DNA from: an uncultured Clostridia bacterium
Lineage (GTDB): Bacteria > Bacillota > Clostridia > Christensenellales > UBA1242
Length of the DNA stretch: 64,000 nt
Direction: 5' to 3'
Assembly: GCA_947632645.1 (NCBI GenBank)
Contig: CANRQB010000003.1
Span: 10,482-74,481 of the forward strand
How positions within the stretch are numbered: the first letter of the stretch is position 1; each line of letters begins with the position of its first letter. Shown here one piece after another: positions 2,166-14,671 of the stretch. The notes beneath the pieces were generated by a model, which was given only the letters and a program-made list of their open reading frames with translations, had not been told where the DNA came from and made no database searches. The translations under genes were made by a program, and so were the position numbers.

Positions 2166-3482
2166 ATGAAAAAATTTTGGTGCATAATTGCCGCATTTTT
2201 ACTATCAATAATTTGCGTGTTTGCTATGCCCATGCGCGTGCAAAAGGTGTGTGCCAGCCAAGGCGAGCAGTTGCAGTTTTTTTATGCCGACCGCGTGTTT
2301 AGTTATAATTTAGAAAAAAACAAAAAGCAACCGGACAGGTTTGATTTAAACCACATAATAAACAAATATAATCGCTTTGGCACAAAACAACAAAGGCAAA
2401 ATTTGTTAAAAGAAATGCTATCGGCAGGGCTAGATGTGGACGTTGCGCTAAACTATATTTTTCCGCATTTAAGCCATACCGTGGAGGGTATAAAAAACAA
2501 CATATATATTGCGCCAAAAGATGCAACGATAAAAATTAATCCAAATGCGGAAAAGGTGTTTAATATTTTTAGCGAGGTGGTGGGCATAAGTTTAGACGAA
2601 CAAGATTTATACAATCAAATTTGTGCGGCGTATCTAAACGATGGCGAGCTAAATTTTGGCATAAAAACCATTTTAACCATGCCCAAAATTACAAGTGAGG
2701 ATTATAAAAAATTTACGCATTTGCGCGCTGACTTTTCAACCGATTTTTCGTCGTCTAGTGAGGATAGAAAGCACAACATAAAAAACGCAATTAACGCGCT
2801 TAATAAATATACAATTTTGCCAAATCAGGTGTTTTCGTTTAACAAGGTGGTGGGCAGGCGTACGCAAGAAAATGGCTATAGAGAGGCAAAAATTATTATA
2901 AATAACGAGTATGTGGATGGCTTGGGTGGCGGGGTATGCCAGGTTAGCACCACGCTATATAATGCAGCGCTGCTTGCCGGGCTGGATATTGTGGAAGCAA
3001 ACAAGCACAGCAAACAAATAGGGTATGTTAAATATGGGTTTGATGCCATGGTAAATTTTGGCAGCAGCGATTTAAAATTTAAAAACAACACAAACCAACG
3101 CCTAACTATAATTGCCACTGCCAACAACAATAAAGTGCGCATACGAATTTACGGCGAGGATATGGCGGGCAAAAGCTATAAACTTGTAAACGAAATAGTG
3201 TCGGTTACCGAGCCAGAAGAACAGGTTATTATAGATACCACTGGGGAGTATGCAGATAAGGTGTTTTACGAGGACGAAAGTTATTATATAAAAAAGGCCA
3301 TCCGCGGCATGGAGGTAAAAAGTTACCGCCAATGCTATTTGGATGGCCAGTTGGTAGAAACCAAACTTATAAGATACGATAAATTTAAGGTGCAAAATTC
3401 AATTAAAGTGTGTGGTGCGCATAAGCGTCAAACACAAAATTTTATTCCGCCAGTTGCGAAATTGGAAAAATTTTATCCTTAA
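2166..3482 (+). CDS. VanW-family protein with N-terminal signal/anchor
   Basis: Hydrophobic N-terminus KKFWCIIAAFLLSIICVFA. VanW-domain signature GGGVCQVSTTLYNAALLAGL. Confidence 0.85.
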   Translation: MKKFWCIIAAFLLSIICVFAMPMRVQKVCASQGEQLQFFYADRVFSYNLEKNKKQPDRFDLNHIINKYNRFGTKQQRQNLLKEMLSAGLDVDVALNYIFPHLSHTVEGIKNNIYIAPKDATIKINPNAEKVFNIFSEVVGISLDEQDLYNQICAAYLNDGELNFGIKTILTMPKITSEDYKKFTHLRADFSTDFSSSSEDRKHNIKNAINALNKYTILPNQVFSFNKVVGRRTQENGYREAKIIINNEYVDGLGGGVCQVSTTLYNAALLAGLDIVEANKHSKQIGYVKYGFDAMVNFGSSDLKFKNNTNQRLTIIATANNNKVRIRIYGEDMAGKSYKLVNEIVSVTEPEEQVIIDTTGEYADKVFYEDESYYIKKAIRGMEVKSYRQCYLDGQLVETKLIRYDKFKVQNSIKVCGAHKRQTQNFIPPVAKLEKFYP

Positions 3483-6012
3483 ATTTAGATAGATTTGTAA
3501 CTGCTTTATAAGCTTCTAAAGCGTTGTCAGGCACATAAATTTTAAAGTCAGTTTGCAAATAGTTGCTGTGCAAGGTGTTGGCTTGTATAGCTGGTGGTTT
3601 TTCGCATTTAAAATATATGTATTTACGCTGTGTTTTATCTAGCGTATCCGAAGTTGTTCCGCCAAAGGCATTGGCTGCTAGTATCAAACAACTTTTAGGT
3701 ATTTCCACATAAGGGCTGTCACCATGACTATTAAATTGTGTACTTAATAGGGTTACCCCCTCTGGGATAATTATTGGCTTTTTAAATGATATATACTCTA
3801 CAAATCTTTCACAATATTGCGTAAGTTTGCATGCAGTAAAATCCACCTCTTCTAGTGTGCAATATGTTGTGTTAGAAAAACAGCCCGAAGCTATATAGTT
3901 TAGCGATGCGGGCAAAACTAGGCGAGTGCTGTATTTGCAGCACTCGGAAAAGCTCATGGTGTTGCAACGCTCTAGTGTGTTGGGCAGCTGTTCTAGTGGC
4001 ACACCCTTGCAGTTTTTAAAGCCACACTCTTGCACCACCTTTAAATTTTTAAGATCGCAAAAATTTGTTATAGTAATTGGCAAATCGCTGTTGGTGCAAT
4101 AAAAGGCATAGGTGTCTACAGTATCGGTGTTTGGGCTTAAGGTTATGTCAAACGAACATCCCTTGTTGTAAAACGAATATCTGCCTACAGTGGTGCACTC
4201 GTCTGGATATGTGTACGATATAGGCAACGAAGTGTCTATCAATTGTGGGCAGGTTAATGCGCGCAAAACGGTTGTGTCTTGTGCCGAGCCGCCCGCCTCT
4301 AGCTCGCCAGAGGTTAGCACGCCATTAGAGTTATAAAACATCTTTCCAAGCAAAACATCTTTTTCGGATGCAGTTGTAAGCGAAAAGTCAGTTTCGGTAT
4401 GCGTGCCTGTTTTAATAATTTTGTCGCCAGCAAAAAAGGTTTTACCCAACACAACATCCTCTTCGGTCGCCGTGGCTACAGATAGGTCGGTTTCTACATA
4501 TGTGCCAGTTTTAAGCTCGTTATTTTGGCTATAAAATTTTTTGCCATACATAACATCCTGAGCTTCTGCATCTGCCAAACCAAAATCGGTATCCACATGC
4601 GTGCCCGTTTTAAGTTGATTGTTGCTTGCATAAAAGGTTTTGCCAGCTACAACATCTTTTTCATCCGCGTTGGCAAGCGTAAAGTCAACATCCTCGTGCG
4701 TGCCTGTTTTAAGTGTGCTATCTTTTGCATAAAAGGTTTTACCTTTAACCACATCCTCGCTAGTTGCGTCGGCAAGGCTAAAATCGGTGTCCACATGTGT
4801 GCCAGTTTTTATCTGCTTATCCTTTGCAAAAAAAGTTTTTCCAACTACAACATCTTCTTCGGTTGCGGTTGCGGCATCCAGTTCGGCATCGGTATGCGTG
4901 CCCACTTTAAGTTCGTTATTTTGGCTGTAGAATTTTTTACCTTCTACCACATCCTCACTAGTTGCATCGGCAAGTGTAAAATCGGTATCTACATGTGTGC
5001 CCACTTTAAGCTCATTGTTTTGGCTGTAGAACTTTTTGCCAGCAACAACGTCCTCTTCATTGGCATCGGCAAGTGTAAAGTCAGTGTCTACATGTGTACC
5101 TGTTTTAATTTCTTTATCCCCAGCAAAAAAGGTTTTTCCAACTACAACATCCTCTTCGGTTGCGGTTGCAATATCTAACTCGGCATCGGTATGAGTTCCA
5201 ATTTTAAGTTGGCTATCGCTTGCATAAAAGGTTTTGCCAGCTACAACGTCTTCTTCGGTGGCATCTGCCAAACTAAAATCGGTGTCCTCGTGGGTGCCTG
5301 TGCGTTTAACGTGATCGCCGCCATAAAAGGTTTTGCCTTTAACTACATCTTGTTCGGTGGCGGTGCCAGAAAAATCTGGTTTAACATATTTGCCAGTTTT
5401 AATAAGATGATCGCCAGCATAAAAGGTTTTGCCAAAAGCAACATCCATTTCAACCGCATCAGCGTTTTTAAAAACTGGCTTTACATAGCTGCCAGTTTTA
5501 AGTTTATCGTCGCCCGCATAATAGGTTACTCCAAACGCTACGTCGTCAGCTGTGGCGGTGGCGGCGGCGTAATCTGGATCGGTATGCGTGCCTGTTTTAA
5601 TTTCTATATTGCCTGCAAAAAATGTTTTGCCTGCTTTAACATCTTCTGGTGATGCTGTGGCAGCGGGAAGGTCGGCATCCTTATGGCTGCCTGTTACAAA
5701 ATTGCCAAATTTATCGTAAAAGGTTTTATTAAACTTTACGTCATCGGCTGTGGCGGAAACATTACTGTAATCAACATCCTCGTGTGTGCCAACCTTAAGT
5801 GTTTCGTCCTGACTATAAAAGGTTTTGCCCATTTTAACATCTTCTGGCATAGCGGTGGCGTTTGTTAAATTTGCATGAGTTATGGTTTTTATGCCTGCGG
5901 TAATTTCGCTTGGGCTGGGGTTGGTGTAGGTGGTAGAAACTTTTCCACCCTTATCTTCTATTGCTTTTTTCTGGGCGATAAGTTCGTGTTTTAAGCGTTC
6001 CAAACTATCCAT
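3442..6012 (-). CDS. Repeat protein: coiled N-terminus, 16 x 33-aa GKTFY repeats, C-terminal BspA-type (Cys-rich) leucine-rich repeats; no signal peptide
   Basis: 856-aa ORF. The repeat consensus is xADAxEEDVVxGKTFYxxxxxLKTGTHxDTDF. The C-terminal region has FxxCxxL-type LRR units (YAFYCTNSDLPITITNFCDLKNLKVVQECGFKNCKGV..., ASGCFSNTTYCTLEEVDF). The ATG overlaps the upstream micro-ORF stop. Confidence 0.8.
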   Translation of the reverse strand: MDSLERLKHELIAQKKAIEDKGGKVSTTYTNPSPSEITAGIKTITHANLTNATAMPEDVKMGKTFYSQDETLKVGTHEDVDYSNVSATADDVKFNKTFYDKFGNFVTGSHKDADLPAATASPEDVKAGKTFFAGNIEIKTGTHTDPDYAAATATADDVAFGVTYYAGDDKLKTGSYVKPVFKNADAVEMDVAFGKTFYAGDHLIKTGKYVKPDFSGTATEQDVVKGKTFYGGDHVKRTGTHEDTDFSLADATEEDVVAGKTFYASDSQLKIGTHTDAELDIATATEEDVVVGKTFFAGDKEIKTGTHVDTDFTLADANEEDVVAGKKFYSQNNELKVGTHVDTDFTLADATSEDVVEGKKFYSQNNELKVGTHTDAELDAATATEEDVVVGKTFFAKDKQIKTGTHVDTDFSLADATSEDVVKGKTFYAKDSTLKTGTHEDVDFTLANADEKDVVAGKTFYASNNQLKTGTHVDTDFGLADAEAQDVMYGKKFYSQNNELKTGTYVETDLSVATATEEDVVLGKTFFAGDKIIKTGTHTETDFSLTTASEKDVLLGKMFYNSNGVLTSGELEAGGSAQDTTVLRALTCPQLIDTSLPISYTYPDECTTVGRYSFYNKGCSFDITLSPNTDTVDTYAFYCTNSDLPITITNFCDLKNLKVVQECGFKNCKGVPLEQLPNTLERCNTMSFSECCKYSTRLVLPASLNYIASGCFSNTTYCTLEEVDFTACKLTQYCERFVEYISFKKPIIIPEGVTLLSTQFNSHGDSPYVEIPKSCLILAANAFGGTTSDTLDKTQRKYIYFKCEKPPAIQANTLHSNYLQTDFKIYVPDNALEAYKAVTNLSKFKDKIFPISQLAE
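4282..5862 (-). repeat. 16 tandem 99-bp (33-aa) coding repeats
   Basis: Counted from the translation (aa 51-577). The repeats are also recognisable at nucleotide level through shared runs such as gtgcccactttaag, ttttggctgtagaa and gcatcggcaagtgtaaa. Confidence 0.9.
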
Positions 6013-6178
6013 AAATACCCTCTAAAACGTTATCTAAATCTTCCTGTAAAAAATAACACCCTTTTAAGATAAAATCCAGTTCGTTTTCAATAAGCAAAAA
6101 TTGATAATAATTTTCCAACCGTTTTTCCACACCAAAAACTTTTTTGTTTGTAAGGTCTAGGTTGTTAAATTCTTCCAT
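6005..6178 (-). CDS. 57-aa micro-ORF translationally coupled to the repeat protein
   Basis: Below the track length cutoff. My translation: MEEFNNLDLTNKKVFGVEKRLENYYQFLLIENELDFILKGCYFLQEDLDNVLEGIYG*. Strong SD GGAGGAA (rc of 6181-6187) two nt upstream of the ATG at 6178. The TAG stop (6007-6005) overlaps the downstream ATG (6012-6010) by 8 nt. Confidence 0.5.
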   Translation of the reverse strand: MEEFNNLDLTNKKVFGVEKRLENYYQFLLIENELDFILKGCYFLQEDLDNVLEGIYG

Positions 6179-6306
6179 TTTTCCTCCTTTATTTTATAAT
6201 TCCCAAATAATCCTAACATTTTTTTTGTTAATTTTTGGCTAGATAATGACAAAAAACTTGTTTTTGACATAAATTTATGATATAATTAAAAAAATTTGGA
6301 GGAGTT

Positions 6307-6912
6307 ATGAAAAATTTAAAATGTCCATTTATTTTGTTTGCTGTGTTTTCCGCCTTTATAATTGGCTGGCAAACGGTTTCTAACAACCTAATATTTTCTG
6401 GTGTAAGTGTGCCATTTGTAGCCCTTGTGCTTATTTTGGCAGCGCTAACCTTTGCCATTGTAACCAATAAGGAGCTAAGGCATCGCATACTAGATTTATA
6501 CATAGTTGCTTGCGTTTTTGTTGTGCTGGAATTTATTGTGTATCTAGTGCTAGAGTTTTCGCTTGGCAACAGCAAAACTTGGCAAGGGTTTATCACCTAT
6601 CAAAATGTGCTATGTGTGCTTGGGCTTATATATCTTATCTACATTGTTTTCCGCGCAATATACGAGGCAAAGGGGCTTAATCTAACTGGGCTAGAAATTA
6701 TTTTGGGCAACAAAAAACCAGTTAAAAAAGTTAAGCAAGCCAAAGAGTTTGCAAATGGCAGTTTAGAGGCAAAGCCTAATCAAAAACATCTAGACGAGCA
6801 AAAAGTAGACGAGCCGGCAGCAGAACAAACGGATAGCCAACCAGTAGAACAAAACACTGTCGCTAACGAGGATAACAGTTCGGTTGATACTAAACAAGAA
6901 GGGGAAGAGTAA
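6307..6912 (+). CDS. Integral membrane protein (about 4 TM segments) with an acidic C-terminal tail
   Basis: SD GGAGGAG upstream of the ATG. Hydrophobic segments FILFAVFSAFIIGW, VPFVALVLILAALTFAIV, IVACVFVVLEFIVYLVL and VLCVLGLIYLIYIVF. No family recognised. Confidence 0.6.
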   Translation: MKNLKCPFILFAVFSAFIIGWQTVSNNLIFSGVSVPFVALVLILAALTFAIVTNKELRHRILDLYIVACVFVVLEFIVYLVLEFSLGNSKTWQGFITYQNVLCVLGLIYLIYIVFRAIYEAKGLNLTGLEIILGNKKPVKKVKQAKEFANGSLEAKPNQKHLDEQKVDEPAAEQTDSQPVEQNTVANEDNSSVDTKQEGEE

Positions 6913-10892: not shown

Positions 10893-11040
10893 AAATTTTT
10901 AAAAATCAACTTTTTTGCAAAAAATTTTAATGTTTTTTGCATTTTTTTTAATTTTTGTCATGTTTTGGATAAATTTTCCTAAATTTTTTGTAACATTTTT
11001 ATGTAAACATTAATACAATATATAATTAGGTTTTTCATCT

Positions 11041-11087: not shown

Positions 11088-11537
11088 ATGTATCACTATG
11101 CACTTTTTAAATATGCCAAATTAGACGAGCACATTCCCGCCGATTTGGTGGAAATTAAATCTAGGAAGCTAAGCGAACTAACCTATCCAAATTTAGACAT
11201 AGCACCATATTGCTATTGCATTAAAATTTTTGATAGCGACAGCCAGGTGGAAATACAAAACTATAGAGCGGCAAAAAAATTTAACGAACAAACCATAAAC
11301 ATTGCCGAGCCAGTTTTTCGCTATGACGATGGCTCGCTTTACACGCGCTCGGGCAGGCTGCAAGATGAGCCATTTAAACAGCAATATAGTCAACTGATTG
11401 GCTGGGTTACATACAAACAATATATTTTAAAACCAAAATACGGTAATTTTTTGTTTATTGCAACCAAATCGGATTGGCTGCAAAATCCTAAACGCATCGA
11501 CGAGGGAGGGCTTGACATCTCTCCACTAAAATTGTAG
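11088..11537 (+). CDS. Hypothetical protein (149 aa)
   Basis: ORF with AGGGGA SD. No family recognised. Confidence 0.55.
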   Translation: MYHYALFKYAKLDEHIPADLVEIKSRKLSELTYPNLDIAPYCYCIKIFDSDSQVEIQNYRAAKKFNEQTINIAEPVFRYDDGSLYTRSGRLQDEPFKQQYSQLIGWVTYKQYILKPKYGNFLFIATKSDWLQNPKRIDEGGLDISPLKL

Positions 11538-12109: not shown

Positions 12110-14671
12110 ATGTTAAGCGTAAAAAATTTAACCAAAATTTACAAATTAAACAAAAAGAAAGGTGGGCTAGAAGTTGTTGCCCTAGATAATGTTTCTATCG
12201 ATTTCCCCGAAAAGGGCTTGGTGTTTTTGCTTGGCAAAAGCGGCAGCGGAAAATCTACTCTTTTAAACTCGATTGGCGGGCTAGACACTTTTGATAAGGG
12301 CGAAATTATAATTAAGGGTAAATCTAGCCGCAATTTTAAGCAGCGCGATTTTGATAGTTATCGCAACACTTTTATTGGCTTTATCTTTCAGGAGTATAAC
12401 ATCTTAGACGAGTTTACTGTGGGCAAAAATTTGGCATTAGCACTAGAACTGCAGGGCAAAAAGGCAGATAGGCACACAGTAGAAAAGTTGCTAGAGCAGG
12501 TGGGTTTGGCAGGCTATTATAAGCGCAAACCGAACCAACTATCTGGTGGGCAAAAACAGCGCGTGGCAATTGCGCGTGCGCTTATTAAAGAGCCAGAGAT
12601 AATAATGGCGGACGAGCCAACCGGTGCGCTAGATAGCAACACGGGCAAACAGGTTATGGAAACGCTTAAAAAACTAAGCCAAACCAAACTTGTTATTGTG
12701 GTTTCGCACGATAGGGAGTTTGCCGAATTTTATGGTGACCGCATAATAGAACTTAAAGATGGGCATATAATAAGCGACACAACAAAAAAAGAGGTTCAAT
12801 CTGCAAAAGTTAATTCGAATGTAAGTGTTATAGATAAAAATATAATTCATATAAAGCAGGGGCAAAAATTAACCGATAAGGATGTTGAAAACATAAACAA
12901 AATTCTCACCAAAAAGGATGGCGACATTTTTATAAGCCTGGATAATAACACAAATAAAGAACTTAAGCGTGCAGCTAGCATAACCGATGATGGCAATCGC
13001 GAAGTGTTTAAAGACACCGAGCAGGACGACATTGTAACCAAAGAGTATAATCCAAAAGATTTTAAGCTTATACGCTCTCGCTTTAAATTTAAGGATTCGT
13101 TTAAAATTGGTGCTAGCAGCCTAAAACACAAACCAATAAGGTTAATTTTTACTATTCTATTATCAGTTTGTGCATTTTGTATGTTTGGTTTGGTTAGCAC
13201 TTTTGCCAGTTTTAATAAAACTGATACCATGGCGCAAACACTGCACGAACTTGGTACCGAAACAGTGGTAGTAGACAGCGAGCGCCCAATTTTTGATGAA
13301 GAGTATACAAAATTAACTATTCAAAATTCATCTCATAAAATACTACCAGTAATACACAAACGTCAACAATTAAATTATAAATATCGTCCAAATCCAGAAT
13401 TGTATCCGGATAGGTATACCTCTAGTTATATAGTTGTGAATGGCATAACTTATATGGACGCCGATATTGCAAACTCATTGGGTTTAAAGCTGGATCAAAC
13501 CACTTTTCCAAATGGACATTGGCCGCAAAATGCAAATGAAATTTGCCTTACTCCTGATCAGTATGCAGAGATAAAAAATCCTGTAAGTGACAACTACACA
13601 ATACTGCTTAACGATGTTACTTTACAAATAGTAGGGGTGTATAATTCTAATGTTAACTTAAAAGAACTTAACAAAAATCCTACAACAAATCACAATAAAA
13701 TTTACATGGAAGAAAAATATGGCTTTAGCGACATTGCTTTAATTAATAAAGACACATTTGATGCCATAAGTGCAGAAAATGAAGTTTCTGACGTTTATTA
13801 TTATTTGAAACGTTATAATAGTGATCAGATTGATGACTCTAACCGTATTTATGCTTATCCATTTTCAAAAATTGATAGTTATTACATTCAGTGGAAAGAT
13901 GGGGTGAATAAAGATAATTTAAAACCAAATCAAATAATTGTTTCATCATCGTATTTTTATGATTTTGATTTTGGCGGTGTTAACCCTAACGCAAAGGATT
14001 TAATAAACAGTGGCCTAACAGTATCAATAGATATGCGTAACGAGTTTACATTTGAAATTGTTGGATATTCTAGTAACGGATATACCTTTATTGACGATGA
14101 GGTTTATAAGTACAATTATTATGGCTACGATTTTGCGATTGTTAAACTTAACAAAAACAATAGCGACAAAACCTTGGTTAAAAATGTGCTTAAAATGGGT
14201 GACGGCATCGATGTGGTGTGTGAATTTAGCGACACTATAAATATGTTTTCTGACACATTTAATACAACTAAGCAAATATTGTTATATGTTGCATTTGGCT
14301 TTGCCCTGTTTGCAATGCTTATGCTTATGAACTTTATTGCCGTTAGCATAACCTACAAAAAGCACGAAATTGGAATACTTCGAGCAATTGGTGCGCGCGG
14401 CAAGGATGTGTTCTTTATGTTCTTCTGGGAGGCCTTCTTAATCTGCATAATTAACTTTGTGCTTGCCACAATTGCTTGTGGGGTTTGTTGCTTCTTTATC
14501 AATCGAGCACTTACAACCGAACTTAATGTGGTGTTTAAAGTGTTGATGTTTGGTTTGCCACAAATTGCACTTATTTTTGCAGTAAGTTTTGTAACTGCGG
14601 TGCTATCAAGTTTAATCCCAGTTTGGCGCATAGCCCGCAAAAACCCAATCGATAGCATCAACAACCGATAA
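12110..14671 (+). CDS. Fused ABC transporter ATP-binding protein / FtsX-family permease (MacB-like)
   Basis: Walker [10 protein letters not shown], signature [15 protein letters not shown], Walker [13 protein letters not shown]. The C-terminal FtsX-type TM bundle includes [24 protein letters not shown] 12110 follows GAGGAA. Confidence 0.85.

Follow-up and report, generated by a model that had tools for sequence, protein, structure and literature searches.

A conserved micro-protein and its repeat-bearing partner in gut Clostridia: candidate segments of a two-part fibre with possible roots in phage tail fibres

Multi-segment phage fibres and branched receptor-binding proteins with N-terminal adaptors, such as T4 gp34-37 and the tailspike sets of the CBA120/G7C type, encode consecutive segments in consecutive genes and combine a conserved N-terminal docking part with a variable distal binder. 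The genes for the fibre chaperones lambda Tfa, T4 gp38 and gp57A lie either after the fibre gene or elsewhere, and the chaperones work on the C-terminal tip of the fibre. Among bacterial surface proteins, those of the BspA/TpLRR type, which are built from leucine-rich repeats (LRRs), are as a rule equipped with a signal peptide or with a lipoprotein or cell-wall anchor, and BclA, the nap glycoprotein of the Bacillus exosporium, joins an N-terminal targeting part to a repeat stalk of strain-variable copy number and a globular tip, without having a signal peptide. Here we analyse a gene pair in a 64,000-nucleotide (nt) stretch of DNA (the window) from an uncultured Clostridia bacterium of the family UBA1242: a micro-gene encoding 57 amino acids (aa) and, downstream of it, a large gene encoding an 856-aa protein with sixteen 33-aa repeats and an LRR tip. 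We give an even chance to the reading that the pair encodes a domesticated two-part fibre descended from phage tail fibres, in which the micro-protein would be the connector stub and the large protein would supply the distal stalk and the tip.

Multi-segment phage fibres are one of the closest comparisons. As in those fibres, consecutive genes would correspond to consecutive segments, with a conserved N-terminal docking part and a variable distal binder, and relatives of both docking ends are found in tail-fibre proteins and in the tail-fibre module of a prophage. Unlike them, the pair occurs throughout the genus Candidatus Onthoplasma as a fixed chromosomal operon, and a search of the genome turned up neither tail nor baseplate genes. 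Its proximal segment would measure only 57 aa, and the pair has no sequence homology with the T4, CBA120 and G7C model fibres.

Anatomy and conservation of the two proteins

The large gene (3442-6012, minus strand) encodes three distinct modules, and the preliminary description of its product as a protein with sixteen 33-aa repeats, a BspA-type LRR tip and no hydrophobic segment is borne out in full (the highest 19-residue Kyte-Doolittle mean is 0.84). The first module, which we term the adaptor (aa 1-49; 5866..6012, minus strand), is delimited by conservation, by an AlphaFold2 (AF2) model and by hhalign comparisons. It consists of a helix, the motif KGG-x-V and then NPSPSEITAGIKTI, and AF2 predicts residues 1-45 as two helices with a predicted local distance difference test (pLDDT) score of 83-93. 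A common hydrophilic helix, M-x-S-L-E-x-L-K-x-E-L, opens each of the 22 aligned homologues, and none of them has a signal peptide; the start of the large protein is thus not mis-called, a concern that signal peptides in homologues would have raised. The first ~80 residues are also the best-conserved part of the family, with 44-69% identity and 19 invariant columns within the first 85.

The second module is the candidate stalk (aa 50-576; 4285..5865, minus strand), in which 16 units of the G-K-T-F-Y type follow one another from residue 50 to about residue 576 with a period of 33 residues (one unit has 32); at the DNA level, Tandem Repeats Finder reports a period of 99/198 nt. Across the family, protein lengths climb in steps of 33 aa (345-368, 390, 423, 456-463, 489-493, 522-530, 559, 611, 680-688 and 856), such that most members measure 345-368 aa and have one repeat, and the copy in the window is the longest found. 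Modelled as a monomer, the repeat unit appears as a short helix and a beta-hairpin of low confidence (pLDDT 30-65), and such poor monomer modelling would be compatible with an oligomeric fibre.

The third module is the tip (aa 580-856; 3445..4275, minus strand), which holds all 16 cysteines of the protein. It matches PF13306 (LRR_5) at E 9.3e-11 with 42.2 bits against a cut-off of 27.7, its AF2 model exceeds a pLDDT of 90, and Foldseek pairs it with 4fdw (E 5e-8), 4fs7 (E 5e-5), 4fd0 and 4gt6. Both the Pfam score and the solenoid fold place it in the BspA-type LRR class. Fold matches include "cell surface" LRR proteins of Bacteroides and Faecalibacterium, PcpA and TpLRR, and extend to LRR proteins of gut siphoviruses and of a crAss-like phage. 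The C-terminal domain is thus like that of BspA/TpLRR surface proteins (PF13306; 4fdw, 4fd0, 4gt6, 4fs7, 6mlx); unlike these proteins, which are annotated as cell-surface, the aligned members of the Onthoplasma family have no signal peptide (0/22) and add a phage-type adaptor and a stalk. The tip is also the fastest-diverging part of the family, with ~20-30% identity across species. Both the N-terminal and the C-terminal parts of the large protein evolve under purifying selection in three close pairs (omega 0.02-0.20). Pervasive positive selection on the LRR tip was considered and was not seen in the close pairs.

The micro-gene (6005-6178, minus strand) starts 5 nt downstream of an AGGAGG Shine-Dalgarno sequence (6183..6188, minus strand), in line with the GGAGGAA site described earlier, and a GGAG-type Shine-Dalgarno sequence precedes nearly all of its orthologues. 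Its product was taken to be unannotated at first; some relatives are in fact called hypothetical proteins in public records. A search with the micro-protein profile retrieved 317 relatives among 5.8 billion proteins, all of them short. Related genomes located by way of the micro-protein are metagenome-assembled genomes labelled Candidatus Onthoplasma or "Clostridia bacterium", recovered from the guts of rabbit, chicken, sheep, human and others; Onthoplasma belongs to the Christensenellales in the NCBI taxonomy and to the family UBA1242 in GTDB. Nine alignment columns are invariant (E22, Y24, E33, L34, D35, G40, Y42, G54 and Y56), and the ratio of nonsynonymous to synonymous substitution rates (dN/dS) is 0.036-0.10 in the four pairs whose synonymous sites are unsaturated. 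The micro-gene is a genuine gene, conserved and under purifying selection. Its AF2 model is all-helical (mean pLDDT 82.6; helices 2-28, 33-39 and 45-53), and the two short C-terminal helices, each ending in G-x-Y, form a duplicated motif, ELDFILKGxY / DLDxILxGxY.

How tightly are the two genes linked? The large gene is present in 24/24 genomes of the same genus and in 0/16 of the other families of the order that were sampled, with the exception of one weak match confined to the LRR. Directly upstream of it, and between the same flanking genes, the micro-gene was found in 17/17 of the loci that were fetched and in another 32 Onthoplasma loci from genomes of other species; in a 33rd, L062, a long form takes its place. 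In the window, the 3' end of the micro-gene and the start of the large gene share 8 nt (ATGGATAG), from which coupled translation had been deduced. The overlap is real, yet coupling based on it is not conserved: in 17 species the spacing from micro stop to large start varies between -38 and +149 nt, and a GGAG-type Shine-Dalgarno sequence of its own precedes the large gene. The two genes are co-transcribed neighbours whose pairing does not require a conserved stop-start overlap, and because the length of the junction varies, a programmed frameshift that fuses the two frames is excluded. In our best explanation, the two genes form an operon that has been inherited vertically across the genus.

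Four micro-protein orthologues (L020, L021, L024 and L025) bear an extra C-terminal tail of 25-45 residues that is acidic and rich in Ser, Thr, Asp and Asn, and in three of these four the gap to the large gene is widened to 50-149 nt. Separately, protein P0287, known from a single 1.3-kb contig in ENA, combines a complete micro domain with TPR repeats and a signal-peptide-like N-terminus; this may be an artefact of gene calling or else a hint of an exportable connector.

Relatives of the proposed docking modules in phage fibres

The preliminary description likened the repeat to those of phage fibres, and both this repeat type and the two docking ends prove to have kin among genuine tail-fibre proteins of phages. 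P0036 joins the N-terminus of a tail-collar fibre protein (PF12571, E 4e-48) to the same 33-aa-type repeats, P0029 places a virion-protein N-terminus ahead of them, and the repeat relatives P0012, P0015, P0018 and P0023, which are large phage proteins, match phrog_13589 and phrog_38337. The micro-protein profile in turn matched 46 clusters among 1.84 billion representatives, ~30 of them micro-sized, and in most of the long matches (121-317 aa) the alignment lies at the extreme C-terminus. Of these long proteins, P0311 has an Mtd_N N-terminus (E 3e-9), a tail-fibre phrog match (E 4.5e-15) and a micro-like C-terminus, and P0309 has a tail-protein N-terminus (E 1e-16) and a micro-like C-terminal match. 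Several others are long coiled coils, and their N-termini also resemble the N-terminus of the micro-protein. Since most of the long relatives match at the C-terminus and several of them at the N-terminus too, the micro-protein resembles both ends of a proximal fibre segment from which the stalk has been omitted.

The same gene order recurs in three other settings. In genus g45, a 566-aa coiled coil that ends in NELDFVLKG and matches a virion structural phrog (E 5e-40) is followed directly by a 329-aa protein composed of adaptor, one repeat and LRR, and in L062 the gene for a 260-aa coiled coil lies ahead of one for a 336-aa LRR protein. The third setting is a prophage of genus g25 (G104), a member of the same bacterial family, where a head-tail adaptor gene is followed by genes for proteins of 1091 aa, 848 aa (a collagen-like tail fibre), 177 aa, 95 aa and 403 aa. 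Here the C-terminus of the 95-aa protein resembles the micro-protein (hhalign 86%, E 5e-6) and the N-terminus of the 403-aa protein resembles the adaptor (hhalign 82%, E 1e-5), so that connector-like and adaptor-like genes stand side by side in this prophage, albeit with individually weak scores. Together with the pair itself, g45, L062 and G104 make four independent settings in which a gene ending in a connector is directly followed by a gene starting with an adaptor. Homology to tail-fibre and receptor-binding modules is thereby found for the repeats, for the connector and for the adaptor-connector pair of the prophage. A suspected likeness between the C-terminus of the 177-aa protein and the micro-protein was not supported.

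The 403-aa protein of the prophage is a receptor-binding protein whose tip, a DUF6273 domain, is the target of a diversity-generating retroelement (G104:C12, L084:12415-14477). The variable repeat (12415-12538) lies in the DUF6273 tip, the template repeat follows at 13141-13264, every one of the 11 mismatches between the two sits at a template adenine, and the gene for an RVT_1 reverse transcriptase lies downstream (13374-14477). The Onthoplasma pair resembles retroelement-diversified receptor-binding proteins of the Mtd type on two counts: this 403-aa relative has the same adaptor, follows a micro-like gene and carries a diversified tip, and P0311 joins Mtd_N to a micro-like end. Unlike in those proteins, the Onthoplasma tip is an LRR domain and not a C-type-lectin or DUF6273 domain, and neither a template repeat nor a reverse transcriptase is present in its flanks.

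Conceivably, the occurrence of both docking modules in a prophage from within the family, together with the lack of an export signal on either protein, might reflect a role inside the cell. The pair could then consist of cytoplasmic parts that latch onto the tail fibres of phages during infection by way of the same connector and adaptor, and that either poison the virions or get borrowed by them. We regard this as very improbable: it is pure inference, no defence gene lies adjacent (the PADLOC library was not searched), and the ladder of lengths together with a fast-evolving LRR tip under purifying selection fits a working binder better than a decoy. Phage ancestry without further phage genes nearby might equally describe a decaying prophage remnant that has no present function. 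The identical position in all sampled species, the intact reading frames, the low dN/dS and the conserved upstream element speak so consistently against decay that we give this explanation only the slimmest of chances.

Several results weigh against a domesticated phage fibre. No HK97-type capsid, portal or tape-measure gene (PF05065, PF04860, PF10145) and no tail or baseplate gene was found in the genome, whose completeness is 88.5%. With the queries used, the large protein and the micro-protein and adaptor profiles matched nothing among the viral contigs of IMG/VR or the genomes of cultured phages. The prophage homologies are individually weak (hhalign 82-86%), and the resemblance of the N-terminus of the 95-aa prophage protein to the adaptor is not significant. 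The docking of micro-protein and large protein is suggested by gene order and by the co-occurrence of the modules, and neither protein has a signal peptide, a transmembrane segment or a known anchor.

The proteins of the G104 prophage have no matches in the genome of the window, and in none of the species does the pair lie inside a structural cluster of a phage, prophage or tailocin, its flanks being VanW, a gene for a four-transmembrane-helix (4-TM) protein, L33, SecE and NusG throughout. A set of 37 viral loci reached through P0309 has the collagen-like N-terminus alone in common and neither of the two modules. Searches of PDB sequences with the micro-protein and adaptor profiles returned chance-level matches, a Foldseek comparison of the micro-protein model with viral structures returned none, and the ESM Atlas yielded sub-threshold, virus-dominated clusters that are a lead at most.

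The long-form pair of L062 (L062:1-7109) is divergent from a pilin-like gene of type IV secretion, a gene for an 800-aa protein and a VirB4-like ATPase gene, and this ATPase is 56% identical to one on contig C1 of the window genome (116-118 kb). A link between the pair and chromosomal type IV secretion genes was considered and rejected, the adjacency seen in L062 being absent from the window genome and from g45.

Possible assembly, display and function of the pair

How might the two proteins work together? We envision a scenario whereby the 57-aa protein would be a minimal, zero-stalk proximal fibre segment, composed of a coiled-coil-type N-terminal helix and a C-terminal connector motif, and the 856-aa protein would be the distal segment, in which an N-terminal adaptor carries a stalk of hairpin repeats and a BspA-type LRR tip that binds the target. 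The number of repeats, which ranges from 1 to 16 in the family, would set the length of the stalk, and the connector of the micro-protein would dock, probably as an oligomer, onto the adaptor of the large protein. The assembled fibre might then serve the attachment of a genome-reduced and partner-dependent bacterium. Bacteria of the family UBA1242 are uncultured and common in animal guts; their genomes of less than ~1 Mb have lost most biosynthesis and transporters and have kept sporulation genes, and they are thought to depend on partner cells (PMC12306168). The assembly that carries the locus, at 885 kb and a completeness of 88.5%, belongs to this lineage, for which a genus-wide fibre with a variable stalk and a fast-diverging tip would be an obvious candidate for attachment. 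The connector (C-terminal) and adaptor (N-terminal) modules have no Pfam family. Both are small and appear to join one fibre segment to the next in phages that infect gut Clostridia, and recognizing them would aid the reading and the re-targeting of such fibres.

Alternatively, the micro-protein may help the large protein to fold or assemble and be absent from the final structure, in keeping with the earlier proposal of a fibre and a small chaperone. It is small and helical, it is always encoded directly upstream of the large gene, with a translational overlap in the window genome, and in four species it bears a disordered acidic tail. With Tfa/Caudo_TAP, gp38 and gp57A the micro-protein has in common that it is small and encoded alongside a fibre gene; unlike these chaperones, it is encoded upstream, matches none of their families and has structural relatives. 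Searches of Pfam and PHROGs with the micro-protein gave no match, tail-fibre chaperone families included. Moreover, the tip, on which known chaperones act, is the least conserved part of the large protein, yet the micro-protein is highly conserved, and the long-form relatives that share its C-terminal end are structural coiled-coil or tail-fibre proteins. We therefore prefer a structural connector to a chaperone, because the relatives of the micro-protein are long structural proteins of which it omits the middle, and we consider the chaperone explanation unlikely. The kinship with fibres, which made up the other half of that proposal, stands. In sum, what had been observed at the locus is confirmed and its interpretation is supported in part.

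How would a two-part fibre reach its place of action? A tip of the extracellular type without a signal peptide poses a puzzle, and because neither protein has a signal peptide, a transmembrane segment or a known anchor, a location at the surface is an assumption. The large protein lacks the hallmarks of a Sec-exported surface adhesin: its hydropathy over 19 residues does not exceed 0.84, and it has no Pfam anchor domain. Nor does it resemble the substrates of type VII secretion, as WXG100 (PF06013) was not found in the genome and the N-terminal helical part, at only ~45 residues, falls short of a long helical LXG domain.

An appendage of the spore surface would offer a way out. The pair could be made in the mother cell, deposited on the forespore with no need of a secretion signal and exposed by lysis of the mother cell, a route that would account for an LRR fibre of the extracellular type that lacks a signal peptide. 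The lineage has kept its sporulation genes, as reported for the family (PMC12306168) and as seen in the assembly, where SpoIVA is detected at E 1e-104 and spoIIID lies within the window. By analogy, the architecture parallels that of BclA in the absence of a signal peptide, in a conserved N-terminus, a copy-variable stalk and a globular tip, and in a spore-forming host; unlike BclA, the Onthoplasma large protein has neither collagen repeats nor homology to it. Searches gave no homologue among known coat and exosporium proteins, and the element upstream of the pair is unlike promoters of the sigma-E or sigma-K type, of which spoIVA and spoIIID in the same genome, with their CATA-type -10 boxes, are examples. 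As an explanation in its own right, the spore appendage seems to us doubtful, and we rate it as quite unlikely; as a route of export, it is compatible with the two-part fibre.

A more far-reaching version of the two-part fibre combines these elements. A genome-reduced, partner-dependent and spore-forming gut bacterium might have kept only the outer two segments of a phage fibre as an attachment device, built in the cytoplasm on the stub, displayed by a route other than Sec (for example, on the spore after lysis of the mother cell), and tuned in its reach by the gain and loss of 33-aa units. Connector and adaptor would in that case make up a plug-and-socket system, hitherto undescribed, that the phages of the same family share. 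We offer this version as tentative speculation that is improbable in its entirety.

Neighbouring genes and the upstream element

The pair is embedded in a fixed neighbourhood. Loci of 12-19 kb from 17 species, one from each, agree in their gene order: the 4-TM gene in divergent orientation, the micro-gene, the large gene and then VanW in convergent orientation, with L33-SecE-NusG-L11-L1 nearby. As had been noted for the pair, phage genes are missing from the flanks, and this applies to all 17 loci. The convergent neighbour, a VanW / PG_binding_4 gene (2166..3482, plus strand), had been named correctly. Its last 41 nt are also, on the opposite strand, the last 41 nt of the large gene (3442-3482), and no convincing intrinsic terminator was found between the two. 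The divergent neighbour (6307..6912, plus strand) does encode a membrane protein, of 201 aa with ~4 transmembrane helices and an acidic tail. It is the conserved open reading frame (ORF) of the interval 6228-6912, with matches of E 1e-23 to 1e-78 in 17 species; a 122-aa ORF on the minus strand of the same interval is its antisense shadow, and not the gene.

An 18-nt element with the consensus TTTTGnCAyGTTTtgGnt, a putative promoter or operator, precedes the pair (6237..6254, minus strand; 76 nt 5' of the micro ATG). In 31/33 Onthoplasma loci it lies 59-81 nt 5' of the micro ATG, the two outliers being at 125 and 145 nt, and in the loci of the 17 species high-scoring copies occur almost exclusively at this site. 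A scan of the region for sigma-70 gave no consensus promoter, and a sigma-54 promoter was rejected, as the invariant GG/GC is missing from the element in many species. Across the whole genome, only two other strong copies were found, with no clear regulon. One of them (10953-10970, plus strand) lies 135 nt 5' of a 149-aa ORF (11088-11537) without a family match and was not seen in the loci of other species where the region is covered. The other, on a different contig (C7:26768-26785, plus strand), lies 81 nt 5' of a 206-aa ORF rich in Cys and His.

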